Shown here: positions 2,913 through 20,581 of the stretch, piece after piece
Layout of the letters: the number at the start of each line of letters is the position of its first letter
Position numbering within the stretch: position 1 is the first letter of the stretch
The notes under the pieces: model-generated
Told to the model about the DNA's origin: nothing
Database searches by the model: none
What the model saw: the letters and a program-made list of their open reading frames with translations, nothing else
Made by a program: the position numbers and the translations under genes
Origin: a virus
Strand: one strand, 5' to 3'
Virus record (IMG/VR): IMGVR_UViG_3300035043_000056
Location: 1 to 45,127 of that record
Length of the DNA stretch: 45,127 nucleotides

Positions 2913-2939
2913 CCCCCGCCTTGCGCGGGGGTTTTTTTT
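2913..2939 (+). terminator. Intrinsic terminator between convergent genes (possibly bidirectional)
   Basis: Stem CCCCCGC (2913-2919) pairs with GCGGGGG (2925-2931) around a 5-nt loop, followed by T8 (2932-2939). The reverse reading has an A-run before the stem. Confidence 0.75.
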
Positions 2940-3360
2940 AATCCATCATCATATTGCGAAACCATTTAGGCAACCGCTGATTAAGCCGCCATATTTCATG
3001 TGCCTGTATAGCTTTTAATGTTGCGTCTGTATGTGCATTCTTGCCGGATCTCAGGCGGTCGAATTTCACGCGCTCAAAAGGCTTGCCGGTTTGCCTGTAA
3101 AGATATTCGGGAATTGATGACAGACCCCTTACACCGCTTTTTAATCCTGAAGGCTTCACCGCTCTTTCAAGATGACCGCTTTTTATCAGTTCAGCTAAAT
3201 ATGCAGATAACGATCTATAGAATGTTTTGACCTCGACCCCTTCAGCTTCACTAATCAGGCTGCAAATACGATCATGTGAATACCATAGCCAAGCCTCTCT
3301 GTTATTCCGGCCCGAGGTCGCCGCCATGATCCTTTCTTTCCAAGTGAGGGTGGTTTTCAT
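2938..3360 (-). CDS. Putative winged-helix DNA-binding protein (140 aa)
   Basis: SLSAYLAELIKSGHLER resembles a wHTH recognition helix. The gene lies directly downstream of the iteron cluster and the primase-helicase. The C-terminus is FRNMMMD. Confidence 0.55.
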   Translation of the reverse strand: MKTTLTWKERIMAATSGRNNREAWLWYSHDRICSLISEAEGVEVKTFYRSLSAYLAELIKSGHLERAVKPSGLKSGVRGLSSIPEYLYRQTGKPFERVKFDRLRSGKNAHTDATLKAIQAHEIWRLNQRLPKWFRNMMMD

Positions 3361-3430: not shown

Positions 3431-3670
3431 ATGGACAAGTGGACATGCCTTTAGGCATTTGTCCATTTTGTCCACTCTCAGGGTTGCGGTGGACATTTAT
3501 GGTGTCCACTCATTGTCCACTGTGTCCACTCCATCCGTAACTAATTGATGTTTAACAGTTTCTTTCGTGATGCCTTTTGTCCTCAGCGTGTCCAATGCTC
3601 TTGAAAATGCTTTCATTTGCGTCTTATTTGGGATTGCCATAACTTCTAATTGGACAAGCGATTTGTCCAC
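3431..3670. repeat. Iteron cluster TGTCCAC / GTGGACA (candidate replication origin or operator array)
   Basis: Exact TGTCCAC at 3469-3475, 3503-3509, 3514-3520, 3523-3529 and 3664-3670. Exact GTGGACA at 3439-3445 and 3489-3495. One-mismatch copies at 3431-3437, 3460-3466 and 3650-3656. Confidence 0.65.
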
Positions 3671-5719
3671 TGAAACCCCGACATCGAATACCCCATTCGC
3701 TTTCAAAATATCATGGAAGATGACGCATTTTGCCTGAAGCTCGGTATGTGAATAATTGACATCCATGTCGGGGTTTTGAATTGCCTCATCATAATATTTG
3801 ATGGCGCGATATGCCGCCAGGGGTGCCGCGTCCAATTCCTCTTCAATCGATGGCGCGATGGCATCGAACTCGGTTTCACCTTCCACGACGACCGAACAGG
3901 TTGTGATCGGATCGCCATCCTCATCTTTTGCCAATTCGACGATGTTCAACCCGAAGCGTTTTTGCTGACCGGTTTCATCGTCCTTCTGTTTCGTGCTACT
4001 GAAGGAGCGATACCACTTCTCGCCGCGCTTTTCAGCCTTGACCTGGATCTCTGTATCGATGTTGCCTTTGAGCGACGAGTGACCCCGCGCCCCTGCGCTC
4101 TCATCCTTGCCGGTGTGATGCACGACCATAACGGCGACCTTGCGATTGAATTTAATGCTTGACATGTTGTTCACGAACTTCGTCATGTCCTCGCTGTTTT
4201 CATTCCCGCCACCAAATGCGGCACTGAGCGTATCGACGATCACGAGGCCGCATTTATAACCTGACTTCGCTTCCAGGTCGGTAATCAATTTGGCGATCAG
4301 CTTCAGGTGATCTTTGTTGTTCAGCAGGTCAACGTGCGCCGGATAATAAGCGAACGGGTGTTCCTTCAAACTCGTACCTGCCTTCACTCCGACACGCGAT
4401 CTTGCTGCCACGGCCCGTTTGCCGAATGATGCACCGCTTTCCGTACAGATATAAAGCACAGCCATTTTGCGCTTGCATTTAAAACCCGCCCAATCTTTAC
4501 CGGCAGCTAAGTGCATCGCCATGTCCAGCGTCAAAAAAGATTTTCCGCTTCCTGATGGGCCGAATAATACATTCACCGTTTCGGCATTCATAAAATGTTT
4601 GAAGAGTGGTGTGCCACTGCTTTTAATCGTTGCATCACCTGAACTGATGAATGCGGCAGTGTCGAATAATTGCTGGACTTTCTCACGTTCTTTTTGCAGC
4701 GGGTTTACCTGCGCGGCAATTCGATCAAGATCAACCTGGTCAAGTCCGGCTGTGAAATCGTTGCCTGATCGCTCATAGCAGCGAATAATTTCCCGCGCTG
4801 TGAGATCCTTATTCTTTCCATGTTCGAAATGCCAAAGGATTTGCGCTGTTTCCAGCAATGAAAACCCTTCGTATTTTAATTCCTTCGCCATCGTAAAGTC
4901 GCGCTCGGATCTCGATGGCTTCATGTCGATCTTGTTTGTCCACAGATCGTCGATCTTATCATTGCGGTTCCGCGCTGCCTCGAACTTATTTTTCACATCG
5001 GCTGGCAGCGGCAATTTCACTTTGTCCATATCAAGCTGTGTGTAATCGATCTCGCTTGTCGTGCTGTCTGCCTCTGAAGGCGTGACGAAATCAATCTGTT
5101 GGTATCGCTGACCAATGCGCGTCGATCTGGCGAGTGCCTTCTTCCTGCCTTTTTTCTTGGCGGTCGGCATGTTCCATGTGTACGGAATACGCATGATCCG
5201 GTCGATATTTTGAACGCGATCGGTGTCGTATTTATCTGCCAATCCTCGTGACAGTGCTTCGTATTGAAGGCGGGTTTCTTCTGTGACCGGCACCGGCTCA
5301 TTGAGCATCCAAAACGCCTGGATACCGCCTCCGCTGTCCGTTATAACTGTCGGCGGGTTATCGCCTTCCGCAAGCTGCTCTGCCAACTGGCGCAGCCTGA
5401 CACGCTCTTGATCGAAGTCCTTATCCTTTGCCGGATCTGCGTCCAACCAGATCGCGTTGATTTCCTTAATATGCTCTTTCTTTAATTTATTGTCCGGCGC
5501 GTCATCCTTTGGTGTATTGACAGAATAATAAAGGTTGCGCTTACCGTTATTTTTCTCGATAAAGTTTTCGATGGCTTCGCTGCCTACGGGCCGTGTCAGA
5601 CCGGTGACGTTTAAGCTGAAGGGATCGATGGCGACAACATTGATGAGCTTATCTTTAAAGAGCGTTTTGAGGAACGTTACAGCTTTTTTTGTGTTGTCGG
5701 ATAATTGATTTTCTGTCAT
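3497..5719 (-). CDS. Bifunctional primase-polymerase / RepA-DnaB-like helicase
   Basis: The N-terminus has prim-pol motifs (IWLDADP, DSGGGIQAFW). The centre resembles a primase C-terminal domain. The C-terminal half has Walker A GPSGSGKS and Walker B VIVDT. I prefer the ATG at 5719 (MTENQ) to the tracked start at 5806, because 5806 falls inside the predicted promoter. Confidence 0.88.
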   Translation of the reverse strand: MTENQLSDNTKKAVTFLKTLFKDKLINVVAIDPFSLNVTGLTRPVGSEAIENFIEKNNGKRNLYYSVNTPKDDAPDNKLKKEHIKEINAIWLDADPAKDKDFDQERVRLRQLAEQLAEGDNPPTVITDSGGGIQAFWMLNEPVPVTEETRLQYEALSRGLADKYDTDRVQNIDRIMRIPYTWNMPTAKKKGRKKALARSTRIGQRYQQIDFVTPSEADSTTSEIDYTQLDMDKVKLPLPADVKNKFEAARNRNDKIDDLWTNKIDMKPSRSERDFTMAKELKYEGFSLLETAQILWHFEHGKNKDLTAREIIRCYERSGNDFTAGLDQVDLDRIAAQVNPLQKEREKVQQLFDTAAFISSGDATIKSSGTPLFKHFMNAETVNVLFGPSGSGKSFLTLDMAMHLAAGKDWAGFKCKRKMAVLYICTESGASFGKRAVAARSRVGVKAGTSLKEHPFAYYPAHVDLLNNKDHLKLIAKLITDLEAKSGYKCGLVIVDTLSAAFGGGNENSEDMTKFVNNMSSIKFNRKVAVMVVHHTGKDESAGARGHSSLKGNIDTEIQVKAEKRGEKWYRSFSSTKQKDDETGQQKRFGLNIVELAKDEDGDPITTCSVVVEGETEFDAIAPSIEEELDAAPLAAYRAIKYYDEAIQNPDMDVNYSHTELQAKCVIFHDILKANGVFDVGVSVDKSLVQLEVMAIPNKTQMKAFSRALDTLRTKGITKETVKHQLVTDGVDTVDNEWTP

Positions 5720-5766
5720 ACTGGTTCTGCTTTTAGGGCCATTGTTTATCTCCGTTGGACAAAGGA

Positions 5767-5800
5767 GAACCCCATTGCGGATCGGTGGGGTTCTTTTTTT
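5767..5800 (+). terminator. Hairpin plus T7 run in the divergent control region
   Basis: GAACCCCA (5767-5774) pairs with TGGGGTTC (5786-5793), followed by T7 (5794-5800). On the + strand it reads as an intrinsic terminator. On the - strand it would form the 5' end of the primase mRNA leader. Confidence 0.45.
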
Positions 5801-5827
5801 ATACATCTACAATGAACTGAGCGTCAA
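5798..5827 (-). promoter_or_regulatory. Sigma70-like promoter for the primase-helicase unit
   Basis: Minus-strand reading is TTGACG (5827-5822), an 18-nt spacer, then TATAAA (5803-5798). Confidence 0.5.
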
Positions 5828-6411: not shown

Positions 6412-7192
6412 ACTTCACATCGATACGATGGATGCGCGTGGCGCGGCTGTGCTGTCCGAATACCTTGAACTGCAAGGTTTCCGCTATGGATATAACGGTC
6501 GCGCCTGTCAACGTCGCTCACCGAGCAACATGCGCTTCGTCACTGTTGATCGTGATGCGCTGTTTTACAGCGGCAGCAAAGGTGCGGCAACCGATGTCAC
6601 ATGGCACGAGTTGACCAAGCATGAGATCAAAGAAATGCTGAAGGCGATCAAGGATGAGGCATTGTCGGCAGATGTGATGCGCGAAGCCAAATACCATCGT
6701 CTGTCGGCAACGCAATATCTTGTTGTGCAGGAATTCAAAAGCGAATTCGGCAATGATGAATATAAATCGATGTGCAGAAACTTCGGTAAATATAAAGAGG
6801 ATGTTTCTGAACTGTCCGGCTATCAACTGGAAAAGTGCATCTCAATGATGCAGGAGCAAATCAATTTACTCAAAGCAAGGCGGCTCACTGGTGACTATAC
6901 CAACATGTCGCGCAATCACCGCCTCGTGATGAGCAAAGACGAATCCAAACTCGAAAGAGTGTGGGTGACGCAGAATGGTTATGAGATGCCAATCTCAAAA
7001 ATGAAAGATGACCATCTGCACAACACGATACTGTTAATTGATCGCAGTATCAGCAAAGGCATGTACCGCCTTGGTGGGAACGAAGATCTTCCTGAACTCT
7101 TAGAGATGCTGGAAGTCGAACGCACCGAACGCGGTATGCCGATGCCTCTTATCCCGATCAAATCACTTGAATGGAGAAAAGCAAATGTCTGA
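6401..7192 (+). CDS. Hypothetical protein (263 aa)
   Basis: Long ORF overlapping both of its neighbours. Confidence 0.75.
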   Translation: MSNKLHIDTMDARGAAVLSEYLELQGFRYGYNGRACQRRSPSNMRFVTVDRDALFYSGSKGAATDVTWHELTKHEIKEMLKAIKDEALSADVMREAKYHRLSATQYLVVQEFKSEFGNDEYKSMCRNFGKYKEDVSELSGYQLEKCISMMQEQINLLKARRLTGDYTNMSRNHRLVMSKDESKLERVWVTQNGYEMPISKMKDDHLHNTILLIDRSISKGMYRLGGNEDLPELLEMLEVERTERGMPMPLIPIKSLEWRKANV

Positions 7193-7532
7193 CCATGACC
7201 CTGAAACTGGCGAAGTGAAAACTTCGACATCAACTGCCTTGGCTCTCAACAGCCAGGAATCCCTTGACGCTCTGAAGAAGGAAGTGATGGATGAATTCAT
7301 TACGTCCGATAAGGAAGTGTTCAAAGCCGCAATGCGTTCGCTGCTCACACAAGAGCAGAAGTTGAACAAACAAAAAGCGTCCATCGACCAGGACATCGAG
7401 CAGCTTCACAAAGCTCGTGCTGCACTGGAAGAGGCGTTCAAAAACGGCACTCTGCATTCCGCAGAAGATGCGCGTGGTGTTGTTCGCACTGTCGGTAAGC
7501 GTACCAACGTTCTTGACGATTTTGAGGATTAA
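7185..7532 (+). CDS. Hypothetical coiled-coil protein
   Basis: ATG at 7185 follows GGAGAA. The C-terminus is VLDDFED. Confidence 0.7.
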   Translation: MSDHDPETGEVKTSTSTALALNSQESLDALKKEVMDEFITSDKEVFKAAMRSLLTQEQKLNKQKASIDQDIEQLHKARAALEEAFKNGTLHSAEDARGVVRTVGKRTNVLDDFED

Positions 7533-7535
7533 GCC

Positions 7536-8156
7536 ATGTTGAACGGAAAAAAGAAATCCCATCTCGAAGCTCGTGCCTCACTGAAACAGAAAATGTTGAA
7601 GTCCGGCCCGTTGGCGTTCATCGAAGTAACAGCGGCAGAGTTGTCGATTACACTCAGTCCTGAATTTCCTGAACTGATCGAAGAGGTTCGTCAGGAACTC
7701 AAAGAGCGTGAAGTGAAAGCGGCTGTTGCCAAACAACGCGCAGAGCTTGGATCTGAAAGCGGCCTTGCAGCGATGGCGGGTTATCGTCATCCGATGGAAG
7801 GTTTGTCACGCGATCCTGAGTTCACGAAAGAGCCGGACCACAAAGCCCATCTCGAACGGCAGGAGCGCAGCGAACCTGGCGACCTGACATTTGAACAGGC
7901 GGTGCGGCCTCTCATTCGTTATCATTTCGGCCTGTCGTATTGCAGCTATTACACAGTGCCGCGCCTTGCGCTTCAGGAGATGCCGCGCTGGTGGCAGTGG
8001 CTCTTCTGCTTCCTTGTAAATATGCTGCCTGAAACCCCAACCTACACCTGCCAGCGTCGTGATAAGAAAGGTCACTTCATCAAGAATGATCCGTGGGCTA
8101 ACTATCGTCGCGGCAGTGTAAAAGACGTTCAAGAATTGGAGTGTGAACATGACTGA
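7536..8156 (+). CDS. Hypothetical protein (206 aa)
   Basis: Long ORF. I recognise no family. Confidence 0.75.
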   Translation: MLNGKKKSHLEARASLKQKMLKSGPLAFIEVTAAELSITLSPEFPELIEEVRQELKEREVKAAVAKQRAELGSESGLAAMAGYRHPMEGLSRDPEFTKEPDHKAHLERQERSEPGDLTFEQAVRPLIRYHFGLSYCSYYTVPRLALQEMPRWWQWLFCFLVNMLPETPTYTCQRRDKKGHFIKNDPWANYRRGSVKDVQELECEHD

Positions 8157-8715
8157 ACAAGTAGTAATTTTTGATCTCGATGGCACACTTGCTGACATCA
8201 ATCACCGGCTGCATTTCGTGCAGAACGGCAATAAACAGTGGGATGAGTTCTACAAGGCTTGTCCCAATGACGGGCCGAAAGAACCGATCATCGAGCTTGC
8301 CCGTATGTGTGACGATGCTGGTCACACGATTGTCATCTCGTCCGGTCGTTCTGAAAACGTGCGCCAGGAAACAATCGATTGGCTTGAAAAGCACAATATC
8401 AATTATGCGCGGCTTTTCATGCGGCCTGATAACTGCTACGTCAAAGACACGATCCTGAAAAAGAACTGGCTCGATGAGGGTTTATTTGGCCCGAAAGAGA
8501 ACATCCTGTTCGTTGTTGAAGATCGTGATAGCATGGTCGAGATGTGGCGCAAGCAAGGTCTGACATGTTTGCAGGTCGAACGCTGGATCGAAGAAGGTGA
8601 GATGTCCTTTCCATTGAAGAAAATCGAGATGGCGCGTAACATGGCAAAGTTCATTAGCGCGACCGATCAGGACAAACGCTTCAACGATTGGTGTATCGCA
8701 CAGGAGAGAAAATAA
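8149..8715 (+). CDS. HAD-superfamily phosphatase (T4 Pnk 3'-phosphatase / 5'-nucleotidase-like)
   Basis: Motif I FDLDGTLAD, motif II SSGR, motif III K-(x)n-VEDRDSMVEMWRKQGLTCLQV. I prefer the ATG at 8149 after GGAG to the tracked GTG at 8143. Confidence 0.8.
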   Translation: MTEQVVIFDLDGTLADINHRLHFVQNGNKQWDEFYKACPNDGPKEPIIELARMCDDAGHTIVISSGRSENVRQETIDWLEKHNINYARLFMRPDNCYVKDTILKKNWLDEGLFGPKENILFVVEDRDSMVEMWRKQGLTCLQVERWIEEGEMSFPLKKIEMARNMAKFISATDQDKRFNDWCIAQERK

Positions 8716-9254: not shown

Positions 9255-9549
9255 AACCCGCAAAGCACCAACCGGTGCAAAACCTGCACAGAAGCCTGTT
9301 CAGAATGCACCAGCAGCGACAGCACCGCAACAAACTATCGTGATGGTTCACTACGTCTGCTTTTCATTTAAGAACGGCAACACGATCAAGGCACCTGTTG
9401 ACAGCGGTGATTCTGCAAAAGCTGTCCTGCGCGATGTCCTGGTGAGCGTCACCAGTGGTAAGCCGTACATCAACGAAGAGAAAGGCATCCTGTTCAATCC
9501 TGTTGAACTGAGCCATTCATTCGCCGTTGTTGAAAGGGCAGCACAATGA
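9247..9549 (+). CDS. Hypothetical protein with a basic, Pro/Ala-rich N-terminus
   Basis: ATG at 9247 follows GAAGGAGAA. Confidence 0.7.
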   Translation: MAKTRKAPTGAKPAQKPVQNAPAATAPQQTIVMVHYVCFSFKNGNTIKAPVDSGDSAKAVLRDVLVSVTSGKPYINEEKGILFNPVELSHSFAVVERAAQ

Positions 9550-9950
9550 ACCAAATCGAGCAAAAAACAGTACCGACGCTTTCCGAAACGGAAATGGCGG
9601 CAATCATCCTGACAGGCGCATGTCACAATCGCGCCTGGAATGCAGGATGGTGGCACGATCTCAATACCGGTGCGAAACTTGATCGCAACGTGCCTGAGAT
9701 GCTGTGTTTGATCCACAGTGAGATCAGCGAGGGTCTTGAAGGTTTCCGCAAAAACCTGAACGACGACAAGCTGCCTCACCGCAAGATGCTCGAAGTCGAA
9801 TTGGCTGATGCAGCCATTCGCATCTTCGATCTTGCTGGTGGTCTTGGCCTTGACATCGCTGGTGCCATCGCTGAAAAGATGGCGTTCAACGAGCAGCGTG
9901 AAGATCATAAGATCGAAAACCGCCAAGGCGAAAACGGAAAGAAGATCTAA
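9546..9950 (+). CDS. MazG-like nucleoside triphosphate pyrophosphohydrolase
   Basis: LIHSEISEGLE...ELADAAIRIFDLAG...KMAFNEQR is a typical MazG-family helix pattern. Confidence 0.78.
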   Translation: MNQIEQKTVPTLSETEMAAIILTGACHNRAWNAGWWHDLNTGAKLDRNVPEMLCLIHSEISEGLEGFRKNLNDDKLPHRKMLEVELADAAIRIFDLAGGLGLDIAGAIAEKMAFNEQREDHKIENRQGENGKKI

Positions 9951-10204: not shown

Positions 10205-10498
10205 ATGCGAAATCTGAAATCAATTCTCTCGATGGGTGCTGCAATGTCTGCAATCGCAGCGATGGGTATGCAGGTGCAACGGCCTGTTCGTGCCACGCCT
10301 CGCAAGCCGAAGGTGATGGTCAAACCTGAGCCTTACAAACCAGTCGTCCACTACGTCAATCCTGACCCTCTGCAAGCGGCTCTGAACAAGATGACCAACT
10401 GGCAGCGCAATCAGGCCGGTCGTGCGTGTAAAGGCAATTTCCGTCGCCTCACACCCGAACTGCTGGAACACTTTTGCAATCTGAAGAAACCGGCATGA
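10205..10498 (+). CDS. Hypothetical protein with a hydrophobic N-terminus (97 aa)
   Basis: ORF whose N-terminus, SILSMGAAMSAIAAMGM, is signal-like. Confidence 0.65.
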   Translation: MRNLKSILSMGAAMSAIAAMGMQVQRPVRATPRKPKVMVKPEPYKPVVHYVNPDPLQAALNKMTNWQRNQAGRACKGNFRRLTPELLEHFCNLKKPA

Positions 10499-10686
10499 GC
10501 GCACGATACAAATTAAAAACTGGTCAGATCAATTTCGAGAGCCTGGACAACCCAGGTGCCTATTCCTGCATCGTGATTAAGGACGGGCAGTTTTACAACC
10601 TCTCGGAAGATCTGCGCCAGATGCTCATCGAAAAACTTCAACAGCCCCAACGGGCCGAAACCACCAGCTTAGAGGATATGTTCTAA
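10495..10686 (+). CDS. Small protein ending in SLEDMF (63 aa)
   Basis: ATGA coupling at 10495. It looks like a paralogue of the next gene (INFESLDNPGA versus ISFIRFGNTGA). Confidence 0.65.
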   Translation: MSARYKLKTGQINFESLDNPGAYSCIVIKDGQFYNLSEDLRQMLIEKLQQPQRAETTSLEDMF

Positions 10687-10892
10687 TGGCACAGTTTGAA
10701 TACGACATGGACAAAAACGACATCAGTTTTATTCGCTTCGGTAACACTGGCGCAGCCGGTTCTGAAAGCTGGATGAAAGGGTCGAAAATGAAACCTTATC
10801 AGATCAAAAAACTGAAAGAGCTTTTGAGATCGGTGGAAGGCGCAGATGTCAAGCCTGAAAACACCCCAAATCTCGAAAATATGTTCGAATAA
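10686..10892 (+). CDS. Small protein ending in NLENMFE (68 aa)
   Basis: TAATG coupling. Tandem paralogue of 10495-10686. Confidence 0.65.
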   Translation: MAQFEYDMDKNDISFIRFGNTGAAGSESWMKGSKMKPYQIKKLKELLRSVEGADVKPENTPNLENMFE

Positions 10893-10925: not shown

Positions 10926-10931
10926 TTGAGT

Positions 10932-11141
10932 ATGAAAGTTCCTACCCACAAAGAATTCACCGATCACATCAAAGACCATCTGAAAGAAACCGGCGAAAAG
11001 CCATCATCTTTCGGTCGTCGTGTATTGGGTGACAGTGGCGCAATCCCGCGCCTCTTCGAAGGCACCGATCCTCGGCTGTCAACGATGCAACGCATTTTGA
11101 AAGCAATCGAAAAGGCCGCGAAGAATGTTACTCGCTCTTGA
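10932..11141 (+). CDS. Small HTH DNA-binding regulator (candidate repressor/Cro-like), probably leaderless
   Basis: SFGRRVLGDSGAIPRLFEGTDPRLSTMQRILKAI is HTH-like. The ATG at 10932 lies 7 nt after the -10 and has no SD. The tracked start is TTG at 10926. Confidence 0.6.
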   Translation: MKVPTHKEFTDHIKDHLKETGEKPSSFGRRVLGDSGAIPRLFEGTDPRLSTMQRILKAIEKAAKNVTRS

Positions 11142-11604
11142 TCTCGGTACAAAAACAGGTTGGGCGACCAACAGTAATGCTGGCATCCAACATGGTATGC
11201 AGGAATTCAAGAACGACCGTTTTTCCGGTGGCGGGATGCGTTTCCTGAAATTCGAAAAATGGTTGAACGAGATTCCACGACCCACTCAGGTTGTGTTTGA
11301 AGAAGTGCGTCGTCATGCTGCCACCGATGCCGCGCATGTGTACGGGGGCTTGATGGCAATCGTCACAAAATTCTGTGAACAACATGGTATTCCATATCAG
11401 GGTGTTCCGGTTGGCACGATCAAAAAGTTTTGGACCGGCAAAGGCAACGGTAACAAAGAAGCCATGCTCAAAGCCGGTCATAAGCGCGGATTTAAAACCG
11501 TGGATGATGATAACGAAATGGATGCGATTGCCCTCTTGCATTACTGGATTTCAGAGTGTATGGTGGACAAATCCAATATTGAATTGGAAGACATGTTGAA
11601 CTGA
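11125..11604 (+). CDS. RuvC-like Holliday junction resolvase
   Basis: N-terminal LALDLGTKTGWA and C-terminal DDNEMDAIALLHY are the catalytic acidic motifs of phage RuvC-family resolvases. The C-terminus is ELEDMLN. Confidence 0.82.
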   Translation: MLLALDLGTKTGWATNSNAGIQHGMQEFKNDRFSGGGMRFLKFEKWLNEIPRPTQVVFEEVRRHAATDAAHVYGGLMAIVTKFCEQHGIPYQGVPVGTIKKFWTGKGNGNKEAMLKAGHKRGFKTVDDDNEMDAIALLHYWISECMVDKSNIELEDMLN

Positions 11605-11642: not shown

Positions 11643-12989
11643 ATGATCCAAGAACCCAACCTTTTTCCCTACCAGATCGAAGGCGCGAAATTTCTCGCAG
11701 CAAGGCAATATGCCGGTCTGTTCGACGGAATGCGTATGGGTAAAACACGCCAGTTCCTCAAAGCAGCAAGAATGATTGGTGCCGAAACGATTGCGGTCGT
11801 TGCGAAAGCATCAGGTGTTTATGTGTGGGAAAAAGAAGCGCGTGAATGGGGCTTCGATCCGATCATCCTGAAAGCTGGCGACGAGCCACAATGGAAAAAA
11901 TTCAATATCCTTTCGTACAACGGTTTGATCTCTGAATTACACGATCAACTGATCGCCATGTGCTACGACTTACTCGGTGGTGATGAAAGCGATGCGTTCA
12001 AAAATATGCAAGCCGCCAGGACACAAAAATTCTTCGGTCTGCGCGAAGATAAATATCGCGCCAACGTCTTTGTTTTCGACGTTGATTTAGGTCTTATGGC
12101 CTATGCTGATCGCGTGTGGGTGATGACCGGAACGCCTGTGCTGAACAACCCGTCCGAGCTTTACCCGATGATGCGTACCATGTTCCCCGATGCCATCTTG
12201 AACGACAAAACGGGTGAACCGATGTCTTTTAATAATTTCTGCGGTATGTATTGCCGGTACGGAAAAAGCAATGGTTTCGGTCGCAAAATCGTCGGCGGCA
12301 AGAACCTTCAAAAACTGCGCGATCAACTGCGCGGTCGTGTGCTGCGCCGGACAAAAGAGCAGGTGTGGGAAGAATGGAAAGAGCCGATCATCGATCTGCT
12401 GCCTGTTCCTGGCAACGTCGATGGCATCCCGTCGAACGAAATTGCGATGGTGCGCGAAGCTCTCGCTTCTGAAGACATTGTTTCCGCGCTACGGGCCGTG
12501 GCACCGCATTGCGCCAGCTTACGCCGGTTGACCGGTCTTGCGAAAGTCAATGGTGTTGTGGATTGGATTGACGACAATATTGAACTCACTGAAAAACTGA
12601 TCGTGTTCGCGCATCACAAGGAAGTGATTGCCGCGCTGAAAAACAAGATCAAAAAATACAAATACGTCGAGATCATCGGCGGCATGACACAAGAGCAAAA
12701 ATACAACGCATATACGGCTTTTCAGGAAGATCCGAAAGTGCAGATTTTTATCGGGCAGAACCAGGCAGCGCGTGACAGTATCCCGCTGTGGAAAGCCTCG
12801 ACAACGATTTCCATTGAACCCGATTGGGTTCCTGGAAACAACGATCAGATGCTTGATCGTATGACCCACTTCTCAAAGAAAGAACCGTGTGTCGGGTATT
12901 ATGCTACGCTGCGCGGTTCAATCGATGAGGATATACAGAAGGCCAATATCACGAAGCGAGAAATCACTTCTGAGCTTGGATTGAATTAA
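11643..12989 (+). CDS. SNF2-family DNA helicase/translocase
   Basis: LFPYQIEGAKFL...GMRMGKTRQ (motif I), GDESD (motif II), MTGTPVLNNPSELYPMM (motif III), and a C-terminal helicase lobe containing IGQNQAARDSI. Confidence 0.88.
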   Translation: MIQEPNLFPYQIEGAKFLAARQYAGLFDGMRMGKTRQFLKAARMIGAETIAVVAKASGVYVWEKEAREWGFDPIILKAGDEPQWKKFNILSYNGLISELHDQLIAMCYDLLGGDESDAFKNMQAARTQKFFGLREDKYRANVFVFDVDLGLMAYADRVWVMTGTPVLNNPSELYPMMRTMFPDAILNDKTGEPMSFNNFCGMYCRYGKSNGFGRKIVGGKNLQKLRDQLRGRVLRRTKEQVWEEWKEPIIDLLPVPGNVDGIPSNEIAMVREALASEDIVSALRAVAPHCASLRRLTGLAKVNGVVDWIDDNIELTEKLIVFAHHKEVIAALKNKIKKYKYVEIIGGMTQEQKYNAYTAFQEDPKVQIFIGQNQAARDSIPLWKASTTISIEPDWVPGNNDQMLDRMTHFSKKEPCVGYYATLRGSIDEDIQKANITKREITSELGLN

Positions 12990-13008: not shown

Positions 13009-13626
13009 ATGACAATGCCTATCCAACTTATCATTACCGGCGATCACATCACCGATGTTTTTGCTGAAATCTCAAACTTCGCTGCTGCAATCGGTGGTGA
13101 TGCACCAAAAAACGAAGCTGGCGCGACGAGTGGGTCGAAAGGCTCGACCGCCTCTGCGCCATCCCCCAAGACTGCACCGGCATCGACAGAAGCCCCTGCA
13201 ACTGGTGGAAAAACCGATGCGAAACTGACTCGTAACGAGCAGGATGCAGCGGTTGAAGAAATGGTCGAAGCCGGTGAAAAAGATGCTCGTTACGAGCAGC
13301 TTACCAAAGGTCGCAAAAAAGCGGTCGATGACGGTATCGCCAAAAAAGCCGAAGCAGAAAGCACTGAAGACGCGCTTTCCGACATGTTCGACGACACCCC
13401 TTCAGAGAGTGAAGAGGAAGAAGTCGAAATCACTGCTGACACGATCCGCGACATGATGGGTAAACTCGGCAAAGATGCCAAGGGCAACCCGATCCAGGAA
13501 AACCTGCTCAAGATCAAATCCGTTCTTGAAAAAGCGATCCCGAAAGGCGTGGAAATCAAAGTCGGCAACATCCCTGCTGACAAGCTGCAAACCGTCTTCG
13601 CTGAACTCAAAAAGCTGGAAGGTTAA
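13009..13626 (+). CDS. Acidic low-complexity protein (205 aa)
   Basis: ORF following AAGGAG; ATG 13015 is an alternative start. It has an Ala/Pro/Ser-rich linker, an acidic block SESEEEEVE and an internal LSDMFDD. Confidence 0.7.
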   Translation: MTMPIQLIITGDHITDVFAEISNFAAAIGGDAPKNEAGATSGSKGSTASAPSPKTAPASTEAPATGGKTDAKLTRNEQDAAVEEMVEAGEKDARYEQLTKGRKKAVDDGIAKKAEAESTEDALSDMFDDTPSESEEEEVEITADTIRDMMGKLGKDAKGNPIQENLLKIKSVLEKAIPKGVEIKVGNIPADKLQTVFAELKKLEG

Positions 13627-13627: not shown

Positions 13628-13819
13628 ATGGCATCGGTCGATATTGATTTTGATCGTATCGATCCCGAAAGGGAAACGAAACACGCATATTTCATCATCT
13701 TCGAAGAAGGTTTTGATGAGGTATCGTGTTTCGTTCCGAAGTCGCAGGTCGAGGTGGATGAAAAACGCAAGGTCGTCACGATGCCTGAATGGATGGCGAC
13801 AGAGAAAGGACTCGTGTGA
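13628..13819 (+). CDS. Hypothetical protein (63 aa)
   Basis: ATG at 13628, immediately after the upstream stop. Confidence 0.6.
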   Translation: MASVDIDFDRIDPERETKHAYFIIFEEGFDEVSCFVPKSQVEVDEKRKVVTMPEWMATEKGLV

Positions 13820-14031
13820 TGTTTATTGAGCAAGCTAGAAAAGCATTACAGGTTAGCCCGAAACCAGAAGCATTTCGCATTGAAAGTGATGAGGTTAAAG
13901 ATTTAGCTGAAGAATTTGAATACAGACTTCAACCAGACGGTCGTAGTAAAAAACAACGATTGAAGGACATCGAGATTCAAATTCGAAGTGGAAACTGCAA
14001 ACTTTTTGGAATTCCAGTGAGGGTTCAATGA
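13819..14031 (+). CDS. Hypothetical protein (70 aa)
   Basis: TGATG coupling at 13817-13821. Confidence 0.55.
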   Translation: MFIEQARKALQVSPKPEAFRIESDEVKDLAEEFEYRLQPDGRSKKQRLKDIEIQIRSGNCKLFGIPVRVQ

Positions 14032-15221
14032 GCGAAGATAACGGACACAGCCTGAACAGCCCTTCATCGTTCGCACGGCGAATCGGCTGCCCTGGATCTG
14101 CAAACCTTGAAAAGCAGTTCCCCAATGAAAGCTCGTCGTATGCCGATGAAGGCACCGCTGCTCACGCGCTCGGAGAGATGTGCCTTAAAGAAGGTAAGGA
14201 TGCCGACTATTATGAAGGCGAGGAAATCAACGCTGAAGACGATCCGACAAAACCGGCGAAGATGTTTACGGTCGATCAGGACATGATTTCGGCGGTGCAG
14301 GAATACGTTGACCATTGCCGACCCCTGTTGGGCCATCATCTGATTGAACACAAGTTTCAGCTTCCATTTCTCGGCTCAGGTGAGAAAGGGACATCCGACT
14401 TTACCGCGCTGAAAGACCGGATCTTGCATGTCGTCGATTACAAACACGGTAAAGGTGTGACGGTCGAGCATGTCGGCAATATTCAAGGTCTGTGCTACGG
14501 ATTAGGAGCCGCGCATCACTTCGACAATCACGAATGGCACACGCTGCGGATCACCATCGCGCAGCCCCGCGCATACCATGAAGAAGGTGGTATCCGGTCA
14601 TGGGATGTGCCTCGTGCAGAATTACTGGATTACATGATCAATTTCGCCGCTGCTGCAAAAGCGACCGAAGATCCAAACGCACCCCTACGGGTCGGATCGT
14701 GGTGCCGCTTCTGCAAGGCCAAGGCACAATGCCCTGAGCAAGCGCGGTCGGCGGCAGAGATCATGGAAATGGATTTCGGTGAACCGACTTCACAGCCGGT
14801 GCCGGTAAATTTTTTGAGTGACGCGCAAATTGCTGACATCGTATTGAACAAGATTAAAATCATTGAGCAATGGTGTGCTTCACTCAAAGACTATGCACAA
14901 ACACGCGCTGAAAGCGGTAAACCGCTTCCTGGCACCAAGCTCGTCGCAACAAGAGCCGTTCGCGTGTGGAAGGATCGTGTAAAGGCTGAAAAATTCTTCG
15001 CAAAACAGTTAGGTGATAACGCCTACAAGATTGTGAAGGAATTTCACAGCGCACCGCAGATCGAAAAAGTTGTGGGTAAAAAAGAGTTCGCAAAACTCAC
15101 CACAGACAAGAAATTCGTGGATCAAATTGGTGTTGAGGCGGTTTCGACCGGCGCAACACTGGTTTCCGAATCGGACCCTAGAGATAGTGTTCGTTCATCA
15201 GTCGAAGATGATTTCGGCTAA
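14028..15221 (+). CDS. PD-(D/E)XK Cas4-like exonuclease (DUF2800-like)
   Basis: SPSSFARRIGCPGS, ADEGTAAHAL, SDFT...VVDYKHGKG (the D...D/E-x-K core) and a C-terminal Cys cluster, WCRFCKAKAQC. Confidence 0.82.
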   Translation: MSEDNGHSLNSPSSFARRIGCPGSANLEKQFPNESSSYADEGTAAHALGEMCLKEGKDADYYEGEEINAEDDPTKPAKMFTVDQDMISAVQEYVDHCRPLLGHHLIEHKFQLPFLGSGEKGTSDFTALKDRILHVVDYKHGKGVTVEHVGNIQGLCYGLGAAHHFDNHEWHTLRITIAQPRAYHEEGGIRSWDVPRAELLDYMINFAAAAKATEDPNAPLRVGSWCRFCKAKAQCPEQARSAAEIMEMDFGEPTSQPVPVNFLSDAQIADIVLNKIKIIEQWCASLKDYAQTRAESGKPLPGTKLVATRAVRVWKDRVKAEKFFAKQLGDNAYKIVKEFHSAPQIEKVVGKKEFAKLTTDKKFVDQIGVEAVSTGATLVSESDPRDSVRSSVEDDFG

Positions 15222-15524: not shown

Positions 15525-16178
15525 ATGACTAACAAATCAGACGTAACCAAGTGCCATATTTCGAATTCCGGCACGATCATCACCCCATCCGGTCGCCTCT
15601 CATACGCGCAATACCTGATCGAACCACAGGAACGCACCTATGAAGACAGCGGCAAGACGGTTAAGGTTTACAGCATGAACTTGCTGCTGCCTCCTGGTCG
15701 TGATCTTGTGGAATTGAAAAAGGCAATGGGTAAAATCGCCCTCGAAAAATGCAAAGGTGACAAGAACCGCGCAGCTAATTTTGTCAACAAGCGTTTCCTC
15801 GATCCGAACAACCTGCCCCAAGGTGGTAAACCGATGGGTGAAGAGTTCGAAGGCTGGACGCTCATTCGCGCAACGTCTTCTTACAAGCCGAAATTTGCTT
15901 ATCCGAACGGTAAGGAAATTCCTGCGGAAGAAGTCGAAAACGAACTGTATTCCGGTCGTTGGGCGCGTGTGACCATCAACCCATACTGGACGGACAACAA
16001 GAAGAACCCTGGTGTCTGCCTCGGCCTTCAGAACGTCCACCTGCTCGATCACGATGAAAAGCTCGGTGGTGCAATCGCATCTGCTGAAGATGATTTCGGT
16101 GATGCAGGTGTTGGTGAAGACGCTGGCAGCAATGCCGGTGGCGACACCAGCAGCAGCGTTGACGACATGTTCAACTAA
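15525..16178 (+). CDS. T7 gp2.5-like ssDNA-binding protein (DUF2815-like)
   Basis: GRLSYAQYL...YSMNLLLP...YSGRWARVTINPYW...GLQNVHLL follows the DUF2815 pattern. It has an acidic tail ending in VDDMFN. Confidence 0.78.
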   Translation: MTNKSDVTKCHISNSGTIITPSGRLSYAQYLIEPQERTYEDSGKTVKVYSMNLLLPPGRDLVELKKAMGKIALEKCKGDKNRAANFVNKRFLDPNNLPQGGKPMGEEFEGWTLIRATSSYKPKFAYPNGKEIPAEEVENELYSGRWARVTINPYWTDNKKNPGVCLGLQNVHLLDHDEKLGGAIASAEDDFGDAGVGEDAGSNAGGDTSSSVDDMFN

Positions 16179-16261: not shown

Positions 16262-16495
16262 ATGTCCAAGCAAATCCCCATTATAGGTTCGGTGACGGAA
16301 CAGAAATTGATCATCACGTTCGCCAAACAGGAAAACGGTGAAGGCGCGATCAATTTTGATTTCGAGCCACCCATCGCGGAAGCAATTTCGCCGGAACAAC
16401 GTGCAGCCGTAAATGTCGCGGAACAAATCATCAAAATGTTTGGCCTTGATGTTGCGAAGGCTGAGAAGGAGAAAAAGAATGCCATCATCCAGTGA
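16262..16495 (+). CDS. Hypothetical protein (77 aa)
   Basis: ATG at 16262 within the tracked ORF 16250-16495. Confidence 0.6.
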   Translation: MSKQIPIIGSVTEQKLIITFAKQENGEGAINFDFEPPIAEAISPEQRAAVNVAEQIIKMFGLDVAKAEKEKKNAIIQ

Positions 16496-16763
16496 TCACA
16501 TGCAGATCGGCGGTAATGCCGGTGCAAGACTGAAATCTTTCGTTGATCGGATCTGCCGGTTGGAACAGGAGAAGAAGGATCTCGGTGAAGATGTAAAAGA
16601 CGTTTACTCGGAAGCCAAAGGTGTCGGTTTTGACACCAAGATCCTGCGTAAAGTCGTGAAGCGTTCGCAGATGGACCCTGATAAACGCCAGGAAGAAGAC
16701 GATCTGCTCGACACATACGAAATCGCGCTGAAAAACAGCCTGAATTCGATGATGGAGGATTGA
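16479..16763 (+). CDS. GapR-like nucleoid-associated protein (DUF2312/UPF0335)
   Basis: LKSFVDRICRLEQEKKDLGEDVKDVYSEAKGVGFDTKILRKVVKRSQMDPDKRQEEDDLLDTY aligns closely with my recollection of Caulobacter GapR. ATG at 16479 follows AAGGAG. Confidence 0.8.
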   Translation: MPSSSDHMQIGGNAGARLKSFVDRICRLEQEKKDLGEDVKDVYSEAKGVGFDTKILRKVVKRSQMDPDKRQEEDDLLDTYEIALKNSLNSMMED

Positions 16764-16766: not shown

Positions 16767-17042
16767 ATGAATGTCCTCGAACGCGCAAATCAGATCACCA
16801 AAGAACGCGGGAAAACATACGGTCATCCTTATGAAGACTATGTTCGCACCGCGAAGATGTGGTCGGCAATTCTCGGTGTCGAAATCACGCCTGACCAGGC
16901 TATCAAGTGCATGATCGCTGTGAAGCTATCGCGCCTCAGCAAAACACCGGATCATCAAGATAGCATCGATGATCTTGCCGGTTATACATGGTGCCTCGAT
17001 GAGGTCGTGAAGATCCAACGCGGGGTGGATATTGAGGCATGA
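16767..17042 (+). CDS. DUF6378-like protein
   Basis: RGKTYGHP...TAKMWSAILGVEITPDQAIKCMIAVKLSRL...DSIDDLAGY follows the DUF6378 pattern. Confidence 0.6.
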   Translation: MNVLERANQITKERGKTYGHPYEDYVRTAKMWSAILGVEITPDQAIKCMIAVKLSRLSKTPDHQDSIDDLAGYTWCLDEVVKIQRGVDIEA

Positions 17043-17392
17043 CTTGCGCGAAGAAACGGGTGAAGTGCTGGATCGTGGTGTCGAAAATAAGCGGCTACCA
17101 TCAATTCGAAGGCACCAACGATGTGCAGAACGCACAGGAAGCCTGTCCACGCACTGAGGGTGAAGGATACGAGAAGTGCCGCACAATCTGCAAACAACCT
17201 GCTCACGCTGAGTTAATCGCATTAAAAAAAGCACTGGAATCCGGTGTGGATCTACATGATGCCACTGCCTACATCGAAGGCATCGATCACTGCTGTAAAA
17301 ACTGTCAGCGGCAGATGTATGCTGCTGGAATTCGAACCATTAAATTCATCGAAGGAGAAGCACATGATAAAGGAAATAAAAGAGATAATTAA
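17039..17392 (+). CDS. dCMP/cytidine deaminase-family zinc enzyme
   Basis: HAE (PAHAELIAL) plus CCKNC zinc ligands, at the usual spacing for deoxycytidylate deaminases. Confidence 0.75.
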   Translation: MTCAKKRVKCWIVVSKISGYHQFEGTNDVQNAQEACPRTEGEGYEKCRTICKQPAHAELIALKKALESGVDLHDATAYIEGIDHCCKNCQRQMYAAGIRTIKFIEGEAHDKGNKRDN

Positions 17393-17560: not shown

Positions 17561-19570
17561 ATGACCAACAACGACATCATCAACGATATTGAAACATACC
17601 CGAATTGCTTCCTGATCTCGTTTTTGCAGATCTCGACCGGCAAGATTAAAGTGTTTGAGATGTCGCCCTGGCGCAACGATTGGAATGAATTCCGGCTGTT
17701 TGCGCGAAACTGCTCAAATGGCTTCGTCCGATGGGTCGGCTTCAACAATTATTATTTCGACTATCCCGTCATCCATTATATGCTGCAAAAATTCAAGCTC
17801 GGAAATTACACCGGAGAGCAGCTTGCGAAAGCCGCCTATGAAAAGGCGCAGATGCTCATCAATGCCGGTAAAGACGACAAGTTCCAGCAGATCATTTGGG
17901 ACAATAACCAGATCGTGCCGCAGGTCGATTTATTCCGCATTCATCACTTCGATAACGTCGCCAGAGCGACATCGTTGAAGGTGCTGGAATTCAATATGCG
18001 CTCGGATAGCGTCGAGGATCTGCCGTTTGATTTTAGAAAAACCCTGACACGCGAAGAATGCGTTGTGCTGGTCGAGTACAACAAACACGACCTGCGCGAA
18101 ACTGAAAAATTCTATCATAAATCGCTCGATATGATCCGGTTCCGCGAAGAACTCAGTAAAAAATATGAGCGCAATTTCTTGAACCATAATGACACAAAAA
18201 TCGGCAAAGATTACTTCATCATGGAACTCGAAAAAGCCGGTGTGAAGTGCTACAATTTCGATGATGGATCTCGCGCACCAAATCAGACGAAGCGCGAAAA
18301 GATCAAAATCCGCGACATCATTTTTTCCTATATTCAGTTTGACCGGCCCGAATTCGACGCGGTGCTGTCATGGTTGAAACGGCAGGAGATCAGTCACACG
18401 AAAGGCGTGTTCACCGAACTCGATCACGAAGGGCTGCGGGATCTCGAACAATACACCAATTTGAAGACCACCAAAGGCAAGGTGAAAAACCTGAATTGCA
18501 TCGTGGATGGTTTTCAGTTCGATTTCGGCACTGGTGGCATCCACGGATCGGTGGCATCCACCATCGTCGAAGAGGATGAGGATTTCGCGCTCCTGGACTA
18601 CGATGTGACCAGCCTTTACCCCTCAATCGCCATCGTGAACGAGGTATTCCCGAAACACCTGAGCAAGAAATTTTGCAGCGTGTATGAGCAGCTTAAAAAG
18701 GACCGTGTTAGTTACAAAAAAGGCACCCCTGAGAACGCCATGTTGAAGCTGGCGTTGAACGGGGTCTATGGCGACAGTAACAACCAATATTCGCCTTTTT
18801 ATGATCCGCAGTACACAATGACGATCACGATCAACGGTCAGTTGATGCTCTGCATGTTGGCTGAGATGTTTTTGCAGGTCGAGGATCTGAAGATCATCCA
18901 AATCAACACAGACGGTATCACGATCAAAGTGCGCCGGAATAAAATCGACGAGGTGGAAGCCAAGTGCAAGGAATGGATGAAGATCACGCGGCTCGACCTC
19001 GAACGGGCCGATTACAGCAAAATGTTTATCCGCGATGTCAACAATTATATCGGGAAATACACTGAAAAATCCGCTGAGGAACAAAAGAAAAAAGTCAAGT
19101 GTAAAGGTGTCTATGAATGGGAAAGCCTGTATCGCCCGAACCATCCGAAACCGGCTGACATCACATGGCACAAAAATCACTCAGCCGTTGTGGTGCAACA
19201 GGCGGTCCAGGCGCATCTTATCGAGGGTAAAAATATCGCTGAATTTATCCGGCAGCACCAAGATCCTTTTGACTTTATGCTGCGCGTGAAAGTCAACAAA
19301 AAAGATCGCTTGATGTGGGGTGACGATCAGATCCAAAACACCACGCGCTATTTTATCAGCACTGACGGTCGGCAGCTTGTGAAGGTGATGGCACCGCTGG
19401 CGAAGAACCCTGACAAGGAACGTCCGATCAAGGTGCATGATGGATTTAAAGCGACACCGATGAACAAAATGGGTGAAGTGAAAAATATCGATTATAGCTG
19501 GTACATCGAAGAGGCTGAAAAATTGGTCAGGCCGCTTTATGACGGAATGCTCACAGATATGATGATTTAG
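17561..19570 (+). CDS. Family B DNA polymerase with 3'-5' exonuclease domain
   Basis: Exo I DIETYPN, Exo II GFNNYYFDYPV, Exo III YNKHDLRE, motif A DYDVTSLYPS, motif B KLALNGVYG, motif C QINTDGI. The C-terminus is MLTDMMI. Confidence 0.88.
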   Translation: MTNNDIINDIETYPNCFLISFLQISTGKIKVFEMSPWRNDWNEFRLFARNCSNGFVRWVGFNNYYFDYPVIHYMLQKFKLGNYTGEQLAKAAYEKAQMLINAGKDDKFQQIIWDNNQIVPQVDLFRIHHFDNVARATSLKVLEFNMRSDSVEDLPFDFRKTLTREECVVLVEYNKHDLRETEKFYHKSLDMIRFREELSKKYERNFLNHNDTKIGKDYFIMELEKAGVKCYNFDDGSRAPNQTKREKIKIRDIIFSYIQFDRPEFDAVLSWLKRQEISHTKGVFTELDHEGLRDLEQYTNLKTTKGKVKNLNCIVDGFQFDFGTGGIHGSVASTIVEEDEDFALLDYDVTSLYPSIAIVNEVFPKHLSKKFCSVYEQLKKDRVSYKKGTPENAMLKLALNGVYGDSNNQYSPFYDPQYTMTITINGQLMLCMLAEMFLQVEDLKIIQINTDGITIKVRRNKIDEVEAKCKEWMKITRLDLERADYSKMFIRDVNNYIGKYTEKSAEEQKKKVKCKGVYEWESLYRPNHPKPADITWHKNHSAVVVQQAVQAHLIEGKNIAEFIRQHQDPFDFMLRVKVNKKDRLMWGDDQIQNTTRYFISTDGRQLVKVMAPLAKNPDKERPIKVHDGFKATPMNKMGEVKNIDYSWYIEEAEKLVRPLYDGMLTDMMI

Positions 19571-20423: not shown

Positions 20424-20581
20424 AAAACTTGCTCCTTTGAATAGCGAGAGTGGTTTCCAGGGGTTCGGACATCCGGCACAAAATAACCGCTTTCACGCCA
20501 TCTTTCGACGGTGCGAACGGTCACATCGAGATCTTTGGCGACCTCTTTTGTGGTCAAGAATGGTGTTGTCGGGGTTTTCAC
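20381..20581 (-). CDS. xis: Excisionase/MerR-type HTH DNA-binding protein
   Basis: FLTTKEVAKDLDVTVRTVERWRESG is an HTH_17/excisionase-type motif. GTG start at 20581 follows AAGGA. It overlaps the int start by 43 nt. Confidence 0.72.
   Translation of the reverse strand: MKTPTTPFLTTKEVAKDLDVTVRTVERWRESGYFVPDVRTPGNHSRYSKEQVLWLKSKRQLEAMML

Follow-up and report, generated by a model that had tools for sequence, protein, structure and literature searches.

How does it come about that unrelated proteins of one phage, among them a DNA polymerase, an SSB (single-stranded DNA-binding protein) and two tandem proteins of only 63 and 68 amino acids (aa), end in almost the same five residues? This question is raised by positions 10,495 to 10,892 of the IMG/VR virus record IMGVR_UViG_3300035043_000056, which was analysed here over its positions 1 to 45,127 (the window; 45,127 bp, 49% G+C). 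The two small proteins encoded there, in the following called A and B, carry a tail built as hydrophobic-x-[D/N/S/E]-M-[F/L/M], after which zero to two residues remain, and such tails recur on members of PF10991, PF10073, the family-B polymerases, the RuvC-like and the MerR-like families as well as on several orphan families. Both hallmarks of a short linear motif are found, namely 3-10 conserved residues amid variable linkers and convergent gain by unrelated families. A literature search returned no description of this tail motif. The answer proposed here is that all tails most probably serve one shared partner, the existence of which we infer from the sequences of the window and its relatives. 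Copies of the motif in the window, or in the last case a related tail, are carried by the following proteins:

10495-10686, plus strand: small protein A, 63 aa, tail SLEDMF (tail codons 10669-10683)
10686-10892, plus strand: small protein B, 68 aa, tail NLENMFE
11125-11604, plus strand: RuvC-like Holliday-junction resolvase, tail ELEDMLN (phrog_159, E 2e-26)
15525-16178, plus strand: T7 gp2.5/Enc34-type SSB, terminal VDDMFN (PF10991, E 1.5e-20)
16479-16763, plus strand: GapR-like nucleoid protein, tail LNSMMED (PF10073, E 2.5e-28)
17561-19570, plus strand: divergent family-B DNA polymerase (PolB), C-terminal extension G-MLTDMMI (profile match)
20381-20581, minus strand: Xis-like MerR/HTH_17 protein, tail QLEAMML (PF13411, E 8e-10), adjoining the integrase gene
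100-567, minus strand: 155-aa protein, tail VLDNMME (no family match)
2938-3360, minus strand: 140-aa protein, tail WFRNMMMD (no family match)
13009-13626, plus strand: 205-aa multi-domain protein, internal ALSDMFDD at residues ~121-128 (~nt 13369-13392)
33405-35522, minus strand: portal, N-terminal LSLEDML at residues 7-13
29420-29866, minus strand: 148-aa virion-module protein, related tail VSLQDLAG (no family match)

All C-termini quoted in an earlier, sequence-only reading of this DNA are present as stated, as are the portal LSLEDML, the internal LSDMFDD and the ends VLDDFED and VEDDFG. That reading had considered Met to be rare and the recurrence of the tail to be non-random, and the counts obtained here support the latter. 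A strand-block gene call gave 57 open reading frames (ORFs) of at least 45 aa with 14,217 residues in total; this gene call is approximate, which leaves the enrichment statistics materially unchanged. Met accounts for 2.85% of the residues in these 57 ORFs. Of the 57 proteins, 8 have the core [DN]M[FLM] among their five final residues, while 0.17 would be expected if internal windows are taken as the background (binomial p 1e-11), and in 5000 shuffles the core never reached more than three proteins. A generalised pattern, [LVIMF]x[DNESTAQG]M[FLMI] within the last seven residues, is found in 9/57 proteins versus 0.25 expected (p 4e-12), the ninth being the Xis-like protein, which had not been recognised before. 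Applied to N-terminal 16-mers, the same pattern has a single match in the window, the portal, and a further copy lies internally in an acidic linker of the 205-aa protein.

Could such a likeness arise at the level of DNA, for instance through a repeated element or through ribosome-binding sites embedded in gene ends? For small protein A, and for this protein only, the tail codons GAG GAT indeed double as the Shine-Dalgarno sequence of B, forming GAGGA nine bases upstream of its start. Yet the Leu, Asp and Glu codons differ between the tails, the sequences downstream of them are unrelated, no DNA repeat was found behind the tails, and the genes for PolB, SSB, the 155-aa and the 140-aa protein have no near downstream gene. 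The differing codons and unrelated downstream contexts therefore rule out a DNA repeat or Shine-Dalgarno origin of the motif. Given also a p value of about 1e-11 and conservation at the amino-acid level across dozens of orthologues, an artefact of nucleotide sequence, gene calling or chance is vanishingly improbable.

The sequence-only reading had described the tail as a feature of replication proteins. Replication proteins are indeed prominent among the carriers, but the scope is wider and extends to the Xis-like protein, the portal N-terminus and the virion-module protein. Two of its family assignments, TerS-like for the 155-aa and winged helix-turn-helix for the 140-aa protein, find no support in Pfam, PHROGs or NCBIfam; the same three collections gave nothing for small proteins A and B, for a 121-aa protein considered below, or for the 205-aa protein. 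In case of PolB, the window sequence has no Pfam match and, as a single sequence, no PDB match, but a family profile of 31 sequences matches archaeal family-B polymerases (E 1.7e-7). The GapR-like protein is 87 aa long in the database gene call, and its ORF could start as early as 16413.

Relatives were collected by IMG/VR and metagenome scans, with about 20 loci obtained for the surroundings of the SSB and 36 for those of the portal. Absence of the tails from orthologues had been set beforehand as an outcome that would refute the idea of a docking network; the tails are kept, in orthologues at 40-85% identity, and the linkers preceding them vary. All 16 SSB orthologues end in [VI]DxMF plus 0-2 residues, with D213, M215 and F216 invariant in the alignment and a surrounding linker that varies in sequence and length. 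In this protein, the OB domain is succeeded by AEDDF, an internal stretch that is conserved, then by the variable linker rich in Gly and acidic residues, and at the end by VDDMFN. Likewise, the GapR-like orthologues from the loci scans end in LxxM[MF]E without exception (13/13), and a GapR database search revealed L-x-x-M-M(-E) on an extension of ~8 aa in 63 of 64 phage-clade clusters; cellular GapR ends in ...YKHALGMT and is devoid of the tail extension. The tail of small protein A, in the form [LVF][ED][DN]MF, is found in 9/9 orthologues, and that of small protein B in both available ones (NLENMLE in L002, NLENMFD in L013). For PolB, nine out of ten orthologues are tailed. Among its homologues, those of at least ~52% identity carry G-phi-phi-x-[DE]-[ML]-[MLIF] after a conserved EKLVxPL, and more distant ones, Sashavirus included, end in ...KLVxPVKRKV without the tail. 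The RuvC-like resolvase retains it in seven of ten orthologues (DLADMLN, NLADMMT, DLDAMLD, DLENMID and others) and has lost it in L003, L004 and L012; the Xis-like protein has it in 7/9, as L[EQ]xMM[LYS]. Orthologues of the 155-aa protein end in DLDGMLG, SLDDMLE and DMDNLLS (3/3), those of the 140-aa protein in WFRLMMLD and WFRELLK.

Outgroups with the same nuclease-SSB-polymerase module have none of these tails, with 0/22 proteins in Sashavirus and 0/47 in L005 and L006. Relatives place the tail on extra small ORFs and on a 237-aa protein, and more distant genomes also on a DUF2800 nuclease, a methyltransferase and a gp49_66 protein. Hence, the tail-bearing repertoire differs between genomes, as is to be expected of a portable motif.

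A further property of the tails became apparent from ten additional genomes retrieved via their polymerases. In seven of them, which are more distant and here called L-type, the SSB ends in V-D-A/D-L-F (e.g. VDALFG, VDDLFS) instead of V-D-x-M-F, and other carriers have Leu at the corresponding position as well: GapR ends in EELFS, EDLLK or EDLIA, PolB in DLL, DLF or DLI, the Xis-like protein in KLDRLLG, LKDLLD or MEDLLS, and the 205-aa homologue has NLF or GLF for DMF (xNLF/GLF-DDE). Scoring the key residue as Met or Leu against the type of SSB in the same genome, with Fisher tests that ignore phylogeny, gave the following counts:

GapR: 16 Met and 0 Leu in genomes with a Met-type SSB, 1 Met and 5 Leu in those with a Leu-type SSB (p 2e-4)
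Xis-like protein: 9 Met and 1 Leu versus 0 Met and 5 Leu (p 0.002)
205-aa protein: 9 Met and 0 Leu versus 0 Met and 4 Leu (p 0.001)
PolB: 11 Met and 3 Leu versus 1 Met and 6 Leu (p 0.02)

M-type and L-type genomes are probably two clades, so that the switch may go back to what is essentially a single event in evolution. Even then, four or five unrelated proteins had to be substituted in parallel, which is the signature of a shared constraint, and the joint change from Met to Leu in SSB, GapR, PolB, Xis-like and 205-aa protein points to one shared partner. An in-step change of this kind across unrelated proteins is what the one-pocket network of hub and peptides suggested by the sequence-only reading predicts, and it is seen here in other genomes. 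Exceptions are PolB in L071 and GapR in L063, and so Met and Leu would be partly interchangeable.

With regard to the two small proteins, the start of A (ATG at 10495) agrees with the starts of its orthologues. An AlphaFold2 (AF2) model of A, calculated from a nine-sequence alignment, displays a folded domain of ~45 aa with a beta-beta-beta-alpha arrangement at residues 9-49 and pLDDT >90, while linker and tail reach a pLDDT of ~60 and a short helix is placed over the tail at residues 59-62. A Foldseek comparison of this model with the PDB gave no significant match. Between domain and constant LEDMF tail, the linker spans 6-30 aa in A and its orthologues. The start of B overlaps the stop of A (TAATG), so that the description of both as tandem holds and extends to translational coupling; their proposed paralogy is only weakly supported, with an hhalign probability of 54% (E 1.2e-4) over just the C-terminal 33 columns, i.e. 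helix and shared tail, at 27% pairwise identity. A and B are best described as a small domain plus linker plus putative docking tail.

Not all copies of the motif are terminal. In the 205-aa protein, DDLxDMFxDD lies within an acidic linker, its F being the same in all of 41 homologues and its M in nearly all. AF2 modelling from these 41 sequences predicts helical domains at 73-123 and 141-202 connected by low-pLDDT linkers. The motif is placed where a long helix frays at its end, and a comparison of the model with PDB folds gave no match. The protein could be a scaffold. Its conserved gene is located between those of a SNF2 helicase and a nuclease, and its layout comprises a ~30-aa N-terminal element, an Ala/Pro/Ser/Thr-rich disordered linker, the helical middle domain, the acidic linker and the C-terminal helical domain. 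Directly downstream, at 13630-13819 on the plus strand, a small gene of ~63 aa (MASVDIDF...MPEWMATEKGLV) was overlooked by the longest-ORF call; its conservation at the DNA level is high in L001, and distant relatives have it with the conserved end PEW[LM]AxEKxL[IV]. As for the portal, L-x-L-x-x-M-M is retained at residues ~5-12 by those relatives, about 17 in number, whose portals are at least 71% identical, and the N-terminal motif is not present in more distant ones. This copy suggests either that the docking network is tied to packaging or that a similar peptide is used separately. Membership of the 148-aa virion-module protein in the motif class is uncertain, its orthologues ending in VDMNDIME, VSLEDMAG, IDMNDMVE and VNLADLME.

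Besides the M-type tail, there is a second class of the form [VA]-E-[DE]-[DE]-F, with which the DUF2800 nuclease and the 121-aa protein end and of which the SSB has an internal copy:

14028-15221, plus strand: Cas4-like DUF2800/PD-(D/E)XK nuclease, tail VEDDFG (PF10926, E 3e-78)
7167-7532, plus strand: 121-aa protein, tail VLDDFED (no family match)
16095-16115, plus strand: AEDDFG within the SSB gene, directly before the variable linker

The nuclease orthologues, including those of the outgroups L005 and L006, end in [VA]E[DES][DE]F plus 1-4 residues, and orthologues of the 121-aa protein in VSDAFEG and IDDDFS. These ends look like those of T7 gp2.5 (...EDGDF) and gp4 (...NDTDF). A resemblance to the acidic tails of T7 and SSB proteins had been proposed for the entire set; it applies to VEDDFG and VLDDFED, which form a class distinct from the M tails. 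The second, older class occurs also in outgroups without the M-type tail. In L-type genomes, the DUF2800 nuclease adds a [DN]LF tail after its VEDDF-type motif, so that both tail classes stand in series as in the SSB.

Among described systems, the tails can by analogy be regarded as a variant of hub-docking tails such as those on the clients of the T4 clamp gp45, with T4 as the nearest single-phage precedent. T4 gp43, gp33, gp55 and a loop of DNA ligase share the peptide LDFLF for binding to gp45, and the T4 tails are interchangeable and follow divergent linkers (PMC2988020; PMC6212786). As in T4, one short hydrophobic-acidic peptide is found on unrelated proteins, in most cases as their very C-terminal end and in a single case within an internal loop, its spacing is phi-x-x-phi-phi, and it terminates the polymerase as well as non-polymerase DNA-binding factors. 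A further phage peptide of similar appearance would be KKASLFDMFDF of RB69, for which a literature search gave no record. Unlike T4, which encodes clamp and loader, none was detected among the window proteins in Pfam, PHROG and NCBIfam; moreover, the window motif uses Met (or Leu) and extends, at the level of sequence, to SSB, nucleoid protein, Xis-like protein, resolvase and portal N-terminus.

With the T7 system, the phage shares a gp2.5/Enc34-family SSB with an acidic, disordered tail that has an aromatic residue near its end, the linker of the window SSB being Gly/Asp/Glu-rich. In T7, however, two proteins are tailed and the polymerase is the hub, whereas here ten or more proteins are tailed including the polymerase itself. 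Additionally, the terminal carboxylate is at no fixed distance: apart from small protein A and a few orthologues, which stop at Phe, mostly one or two more residues follow (N, E, D, G, S, DD). The C-terminal tip of bacterial SSB, to name another tail of this kind, reads DDDIPF. The PIP-box of archaeal and eukaryotic PCNA clients, QxxLxxFF, likewise has the phi-x-x-phi-phi spacing and stands at the C-terminal ends of family-B polymerases, nucleases, resolvases and methyltransferases; it is short and forms a helix, which fits the short helix predicted by AF2 over the tail of small protein A. In contrast, Gln and the aromatic pair are absent here, the phage has no PCNA-like protein, and bacteria have no PCNA.

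From these observations, a mechanism can be proposed in which the tails would be copies of one portable docking motif, aliphatic-x-[D/N/S/E]-[M, or L in sister clades]-[F/L/M], independently added to unrelated phage proteins, either 0-2 residues from the free end or in a flexible loop. The motif would tether all carriers to one shared hydrophobic pocket, and this pocket would belong to a sliding clamp acting as a tool-belt. The absence of a phage clamp, already stated in the sequence-only reading, agrees with Pfam, PHROG and NCBIfam scans of the window proteins, which were negative for clamp and loader. Because no phage clamp or clamp loader is recognisable, the hub clamp would be the host beta clamp (DnaN), which is tentatively regarded as the leading candidate for the pocket, at somewhat less than even chance. 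The family-B polymerase would gain processivity via its C-terminal tail, and resolvase, nuclease, Xis-like, helix-turn-helix (HTH)-type and GapR-like proteins would be concentrated on replicating phage DNA. For small proteins A and B, we infer a role as adaptors, or as competitors or blockers that would displace host clients. Proteins that might hide a phage clamp were considered as well: two orphans of 250 and 263 aa match nothing in the PDB by sequence and lack conservation among the relatives, and for the 205-aa protein AF2 and Foldseek gave helical domains and disordered linkers with no match. The latter, largely disordered in the AF2 model, is the only conserved unannotated ORF of at least 200 aa in the replication module.

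The clamp is favoured because a family-B polymerase with a C-terminal tail occurs in a phage without clamp, and because the list of clients resembles that of known clamps and PCNA. Family-B polymerase C-termini classically carry clamp-binding peptides. For comparison, the E. coli peptides binding the beta clamp are QADMF in Pol III alpha and QLGLF in Pol II; the canonical motif is Q-phi-x-[L/M]-[F/L], of which the LF moiety binds beta alone and Gln matters (PMC11139829). The nearest precedent for a clamp-less phage is, by analogy, Mu, whose Mor and MuC bind E. coli DnaN via N- and C-terminal Qx[D/E][L/M]F motifs, Mor keeping only DLF (PMC12867686). Phage DNA-binding regulators are thus known to ride the host clamp by such a motif. 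At sequence level, the core [D/S/N]-[L/M]-[F/L] is identical to that of beta-clamp motifs, which also are placed at N-termini, C-termini and in loops. The likeness to this motif suggested earlier therefore holds for positions 3-5, with positions 4-5 read as MF, ML or MM in the window clade and as LF, LL or LI in L-type genomes, but not for the remainder.

Several points weigh against the host clamp. Gln at position 1 is absent from every tail and replaced by L, V or I, and position 2 holds one of E, D, N, T, S and A rather than an aliphatic residue. The aliphatic residue instead stands two residues before [LM], not one, which gives a phi-x-x-phi-phi spacing that is PIP-box- or gp45-like and not beta-like. 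To our knowledge, SSBs are not classical clamp clients, and a motif on the portal N-terminus and on a virion-module protein is odd for a clamp. In L004, PolB has lost the tail while SSB, GapR and small protein A keep it, and the covariation of Met and Leu is uncorrected for phylogeny, with the exceptions of L071 PolB and L063 GapR. Met-Met and Met-Leu endings are common in the window, and Met at position 5 falls outside the published definition of the beta-clamp motif, among whose natural ligands only the delta subunit is without Gln (PMC11139829). Furthermore, the beta pocket is highly conserved, so that a clade-wide switch from Met to Leu is not obviously driven by DnaN (PMC11139829).

The same docking peptide could instead address a phage-encoded hub of the T7 kind, and this is rather unlikely but the most serious of the rival explanations. 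Candidates are the primase-helicase (3497-5806) and the SNF2-type helicase (11643-12989), which are present in all relatives and never tail-bearing, a surface of PolB or the OB cleft of the SSB, with their own tails as pseudo-ligands, and a domain of the 205-aa protein. A fast-evolving phage pocket would most easily explain the coordinated switch, given how conserved that of DnaN is, and the SSB is of the gp2.5/Enc34 type (PF10991; PMC5686142), with the T7 precedent of gp2.5 and gp4 both ending in DF. On the other hand, none of these candidates yielded a pocket, the 205-aa protein resembles no PDB fold, T7-type tails need a terminal Phe carboxylate and strong acidity while here 0-2 residues follow the hydrophobic pair, and there is no obvious reason for Xis-like, HTH-type, methyltransferase and portal proteins to dock on a replisome enzyme. 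A variant, which we hold to be quite improbable, replaces the clamp by a phage-encoded organiser, for which the 205-aa protein is one candidate. Through domains on long disordered linkers and with its own internal motif, it would self-associate and gather SSB, polymerase, resolvase, GapR-like and Xis-like proteins, regulators and, via the N-terminal copy, the portal into a replication-recombination-packaging compartment, the tail serving each clade, M-type or L-type, as its own 'entry ticket' in co-evolution with the hub.

A host machine other than the clamp, such as a protease or unfoldase recognising a degron, a chaperone, or a polar or nucleoid organiser, is an improbable partner. As a degron, the shared tail would clear lytic-cycle proteins of a temperate phage, in keeping with the presence of integrase and Xis-like genes and with clients beyond replication; many known bacterial degrons are short terminal peptides. 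Known C-terminal degrons, however, have non-polar ends at a fixed distance from the carboxylate, while the ends found here are mostly acidic or polar with an offset of 0-2, copies are also internal and N-terminal, and joint degradation of SSB, polymerase and portal would have little visible benefit. Very improbable, finally, is that no common partner exists and that self-inhibitory DNA-mimic tails or partner-specific contacts, e.g. between Xis and Int, arose independently and look alike since acidic-hydrophobic ends are favoured. Lambda Xis does use its C-terminus for Int, and single proteins have lost the tail in some relatives. The acidic tails of T7 gp2.5 and Enc34 ORF6 moreover occupy the DNA-binding groove of the same or of a neighbouring molecule (PMC5686142). 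Still, unrelated folds would not all select phi-x-[DN]-M-[FLM], the outgroups bear the same replication module without any such tail, and parallel replacement of Met by Leu in four to five families would be unexpected if no constraint was shared.

The genomic setting of the tail genes is that of a temperate phage, which follows from a tyrosine integrase gene next to the MerR/HTH_17 Xis-like gene, and the window looks like the near-complete genome of an uncultured temperate podovirus:

19551-20423, minus strand: tyrosine integrase (PF00589)

A plus-strand block at ~5.9-19.6 kb comprises replication and recombination genes; the integrase and Xis-like genes at 19.5-20.6 kb on the minus strand (19551-20581) are convergent with the polymerase gene. 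A long minus-strand virion block encodes T7-like internal virion proteins, transglycosylase, tubular proteins and major head protein, and further portal, TerL, amidase and tail fibres. This virion module is T7/SU10-like (internal virion proteins; SU10_adaptor in relatives) despite the temperate nature of the phage. A megablast search with 11 kb against 50,697 phage records revealed no relative. The closest annotated polymerases, from Sashavirus and Klebsiella siphophages, are at best 49% identical to that of the window; their alignments end ten residues short of its C-terminus, and they are devoid of the tail. The NCBI copies of relatives are metagenome assemblies, and two scans over genome contigs in search of a host gave only a 3.7-kb contig of a metagenome-assembled genome labelled Opitutaceae, while the GapR homologue hints at an alphaproteobacterial host. 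Scans of the window for tRNAs and Rfam families gave no match.

Further genes and signals were noted in the window. Between the two small tail-bearing proteins and RuvC, a conserved protein of 69-71 aa with a Cro/XRE-like HTH signature (PSSFGRRVLGDSGAIPRL) is encoded at 10926-11141 on the plus strand; it is present in all relatives, tail-less, and directly preceded by a TTGACA promoter-like box at ~10897. A strong terminator-like hairpin at 2900-2937 (cccccgcgcaaggcggggg after an A-run) lies downstream of the gene for the 140-aa protein (2938-3360, minus strand). Accessory genes of the nucleotide-metabolism type are interspersed in the replication block on the plus strand, encoding polynucleotide-kinase-like (8143-8715), MazG-like pyrophosphatase (9546-9950), DUF6378-like (16767-17042) and dCMP/cytidine-deaminase-like (17039-17392) proteins, the PHROG label of the DUF6378-like one reading 'phosphofructokinase'. 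At 838-2821 on the plus strand, five or six ORFs (250, 59, 100, 165 and 69 aa) have no family matches and no orthologues in L022, a related contig spanning the region, and this block is probably a variable accessory island of moron or anti-defence genes. Relatives carry accessory genes not found in the window (L067 7863-8111 and 11753-12649, L070 932-1375, L064 296-973 and 13298-13834), with products of the Acb2/Tad1-hairpin (anti-CBASS-type), DnaJ-domain, RNA-polymerase alpha-CTD-domain and ART-PolyVal types.

If the docking of all tails onto one pocket is true, this would surpass in breadth any network of shared tails so far described for a phage, including the handful of T4 gp45 clients and the two T7 tails, with a single pocket serving polymerase, SSB, resolvase, nucleoid protein, excision factor, regulators and small proteins across a clade of uncultured temperate podophages. 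A signature of five residues would then predict which orphan phage genes, tiny ones included, act on replicating DNA, and the M-type and L-type clades would afford a natural pair for specificity swaps. Should the hub be DnaN, a clamp-less phage with a family-B polymerase would run its entire DNA metabolism on the tool-belt of its host by means of a non-canonical, Gln-less motif, which would also be of relevance for antibacterial peptides targeting the clamp.

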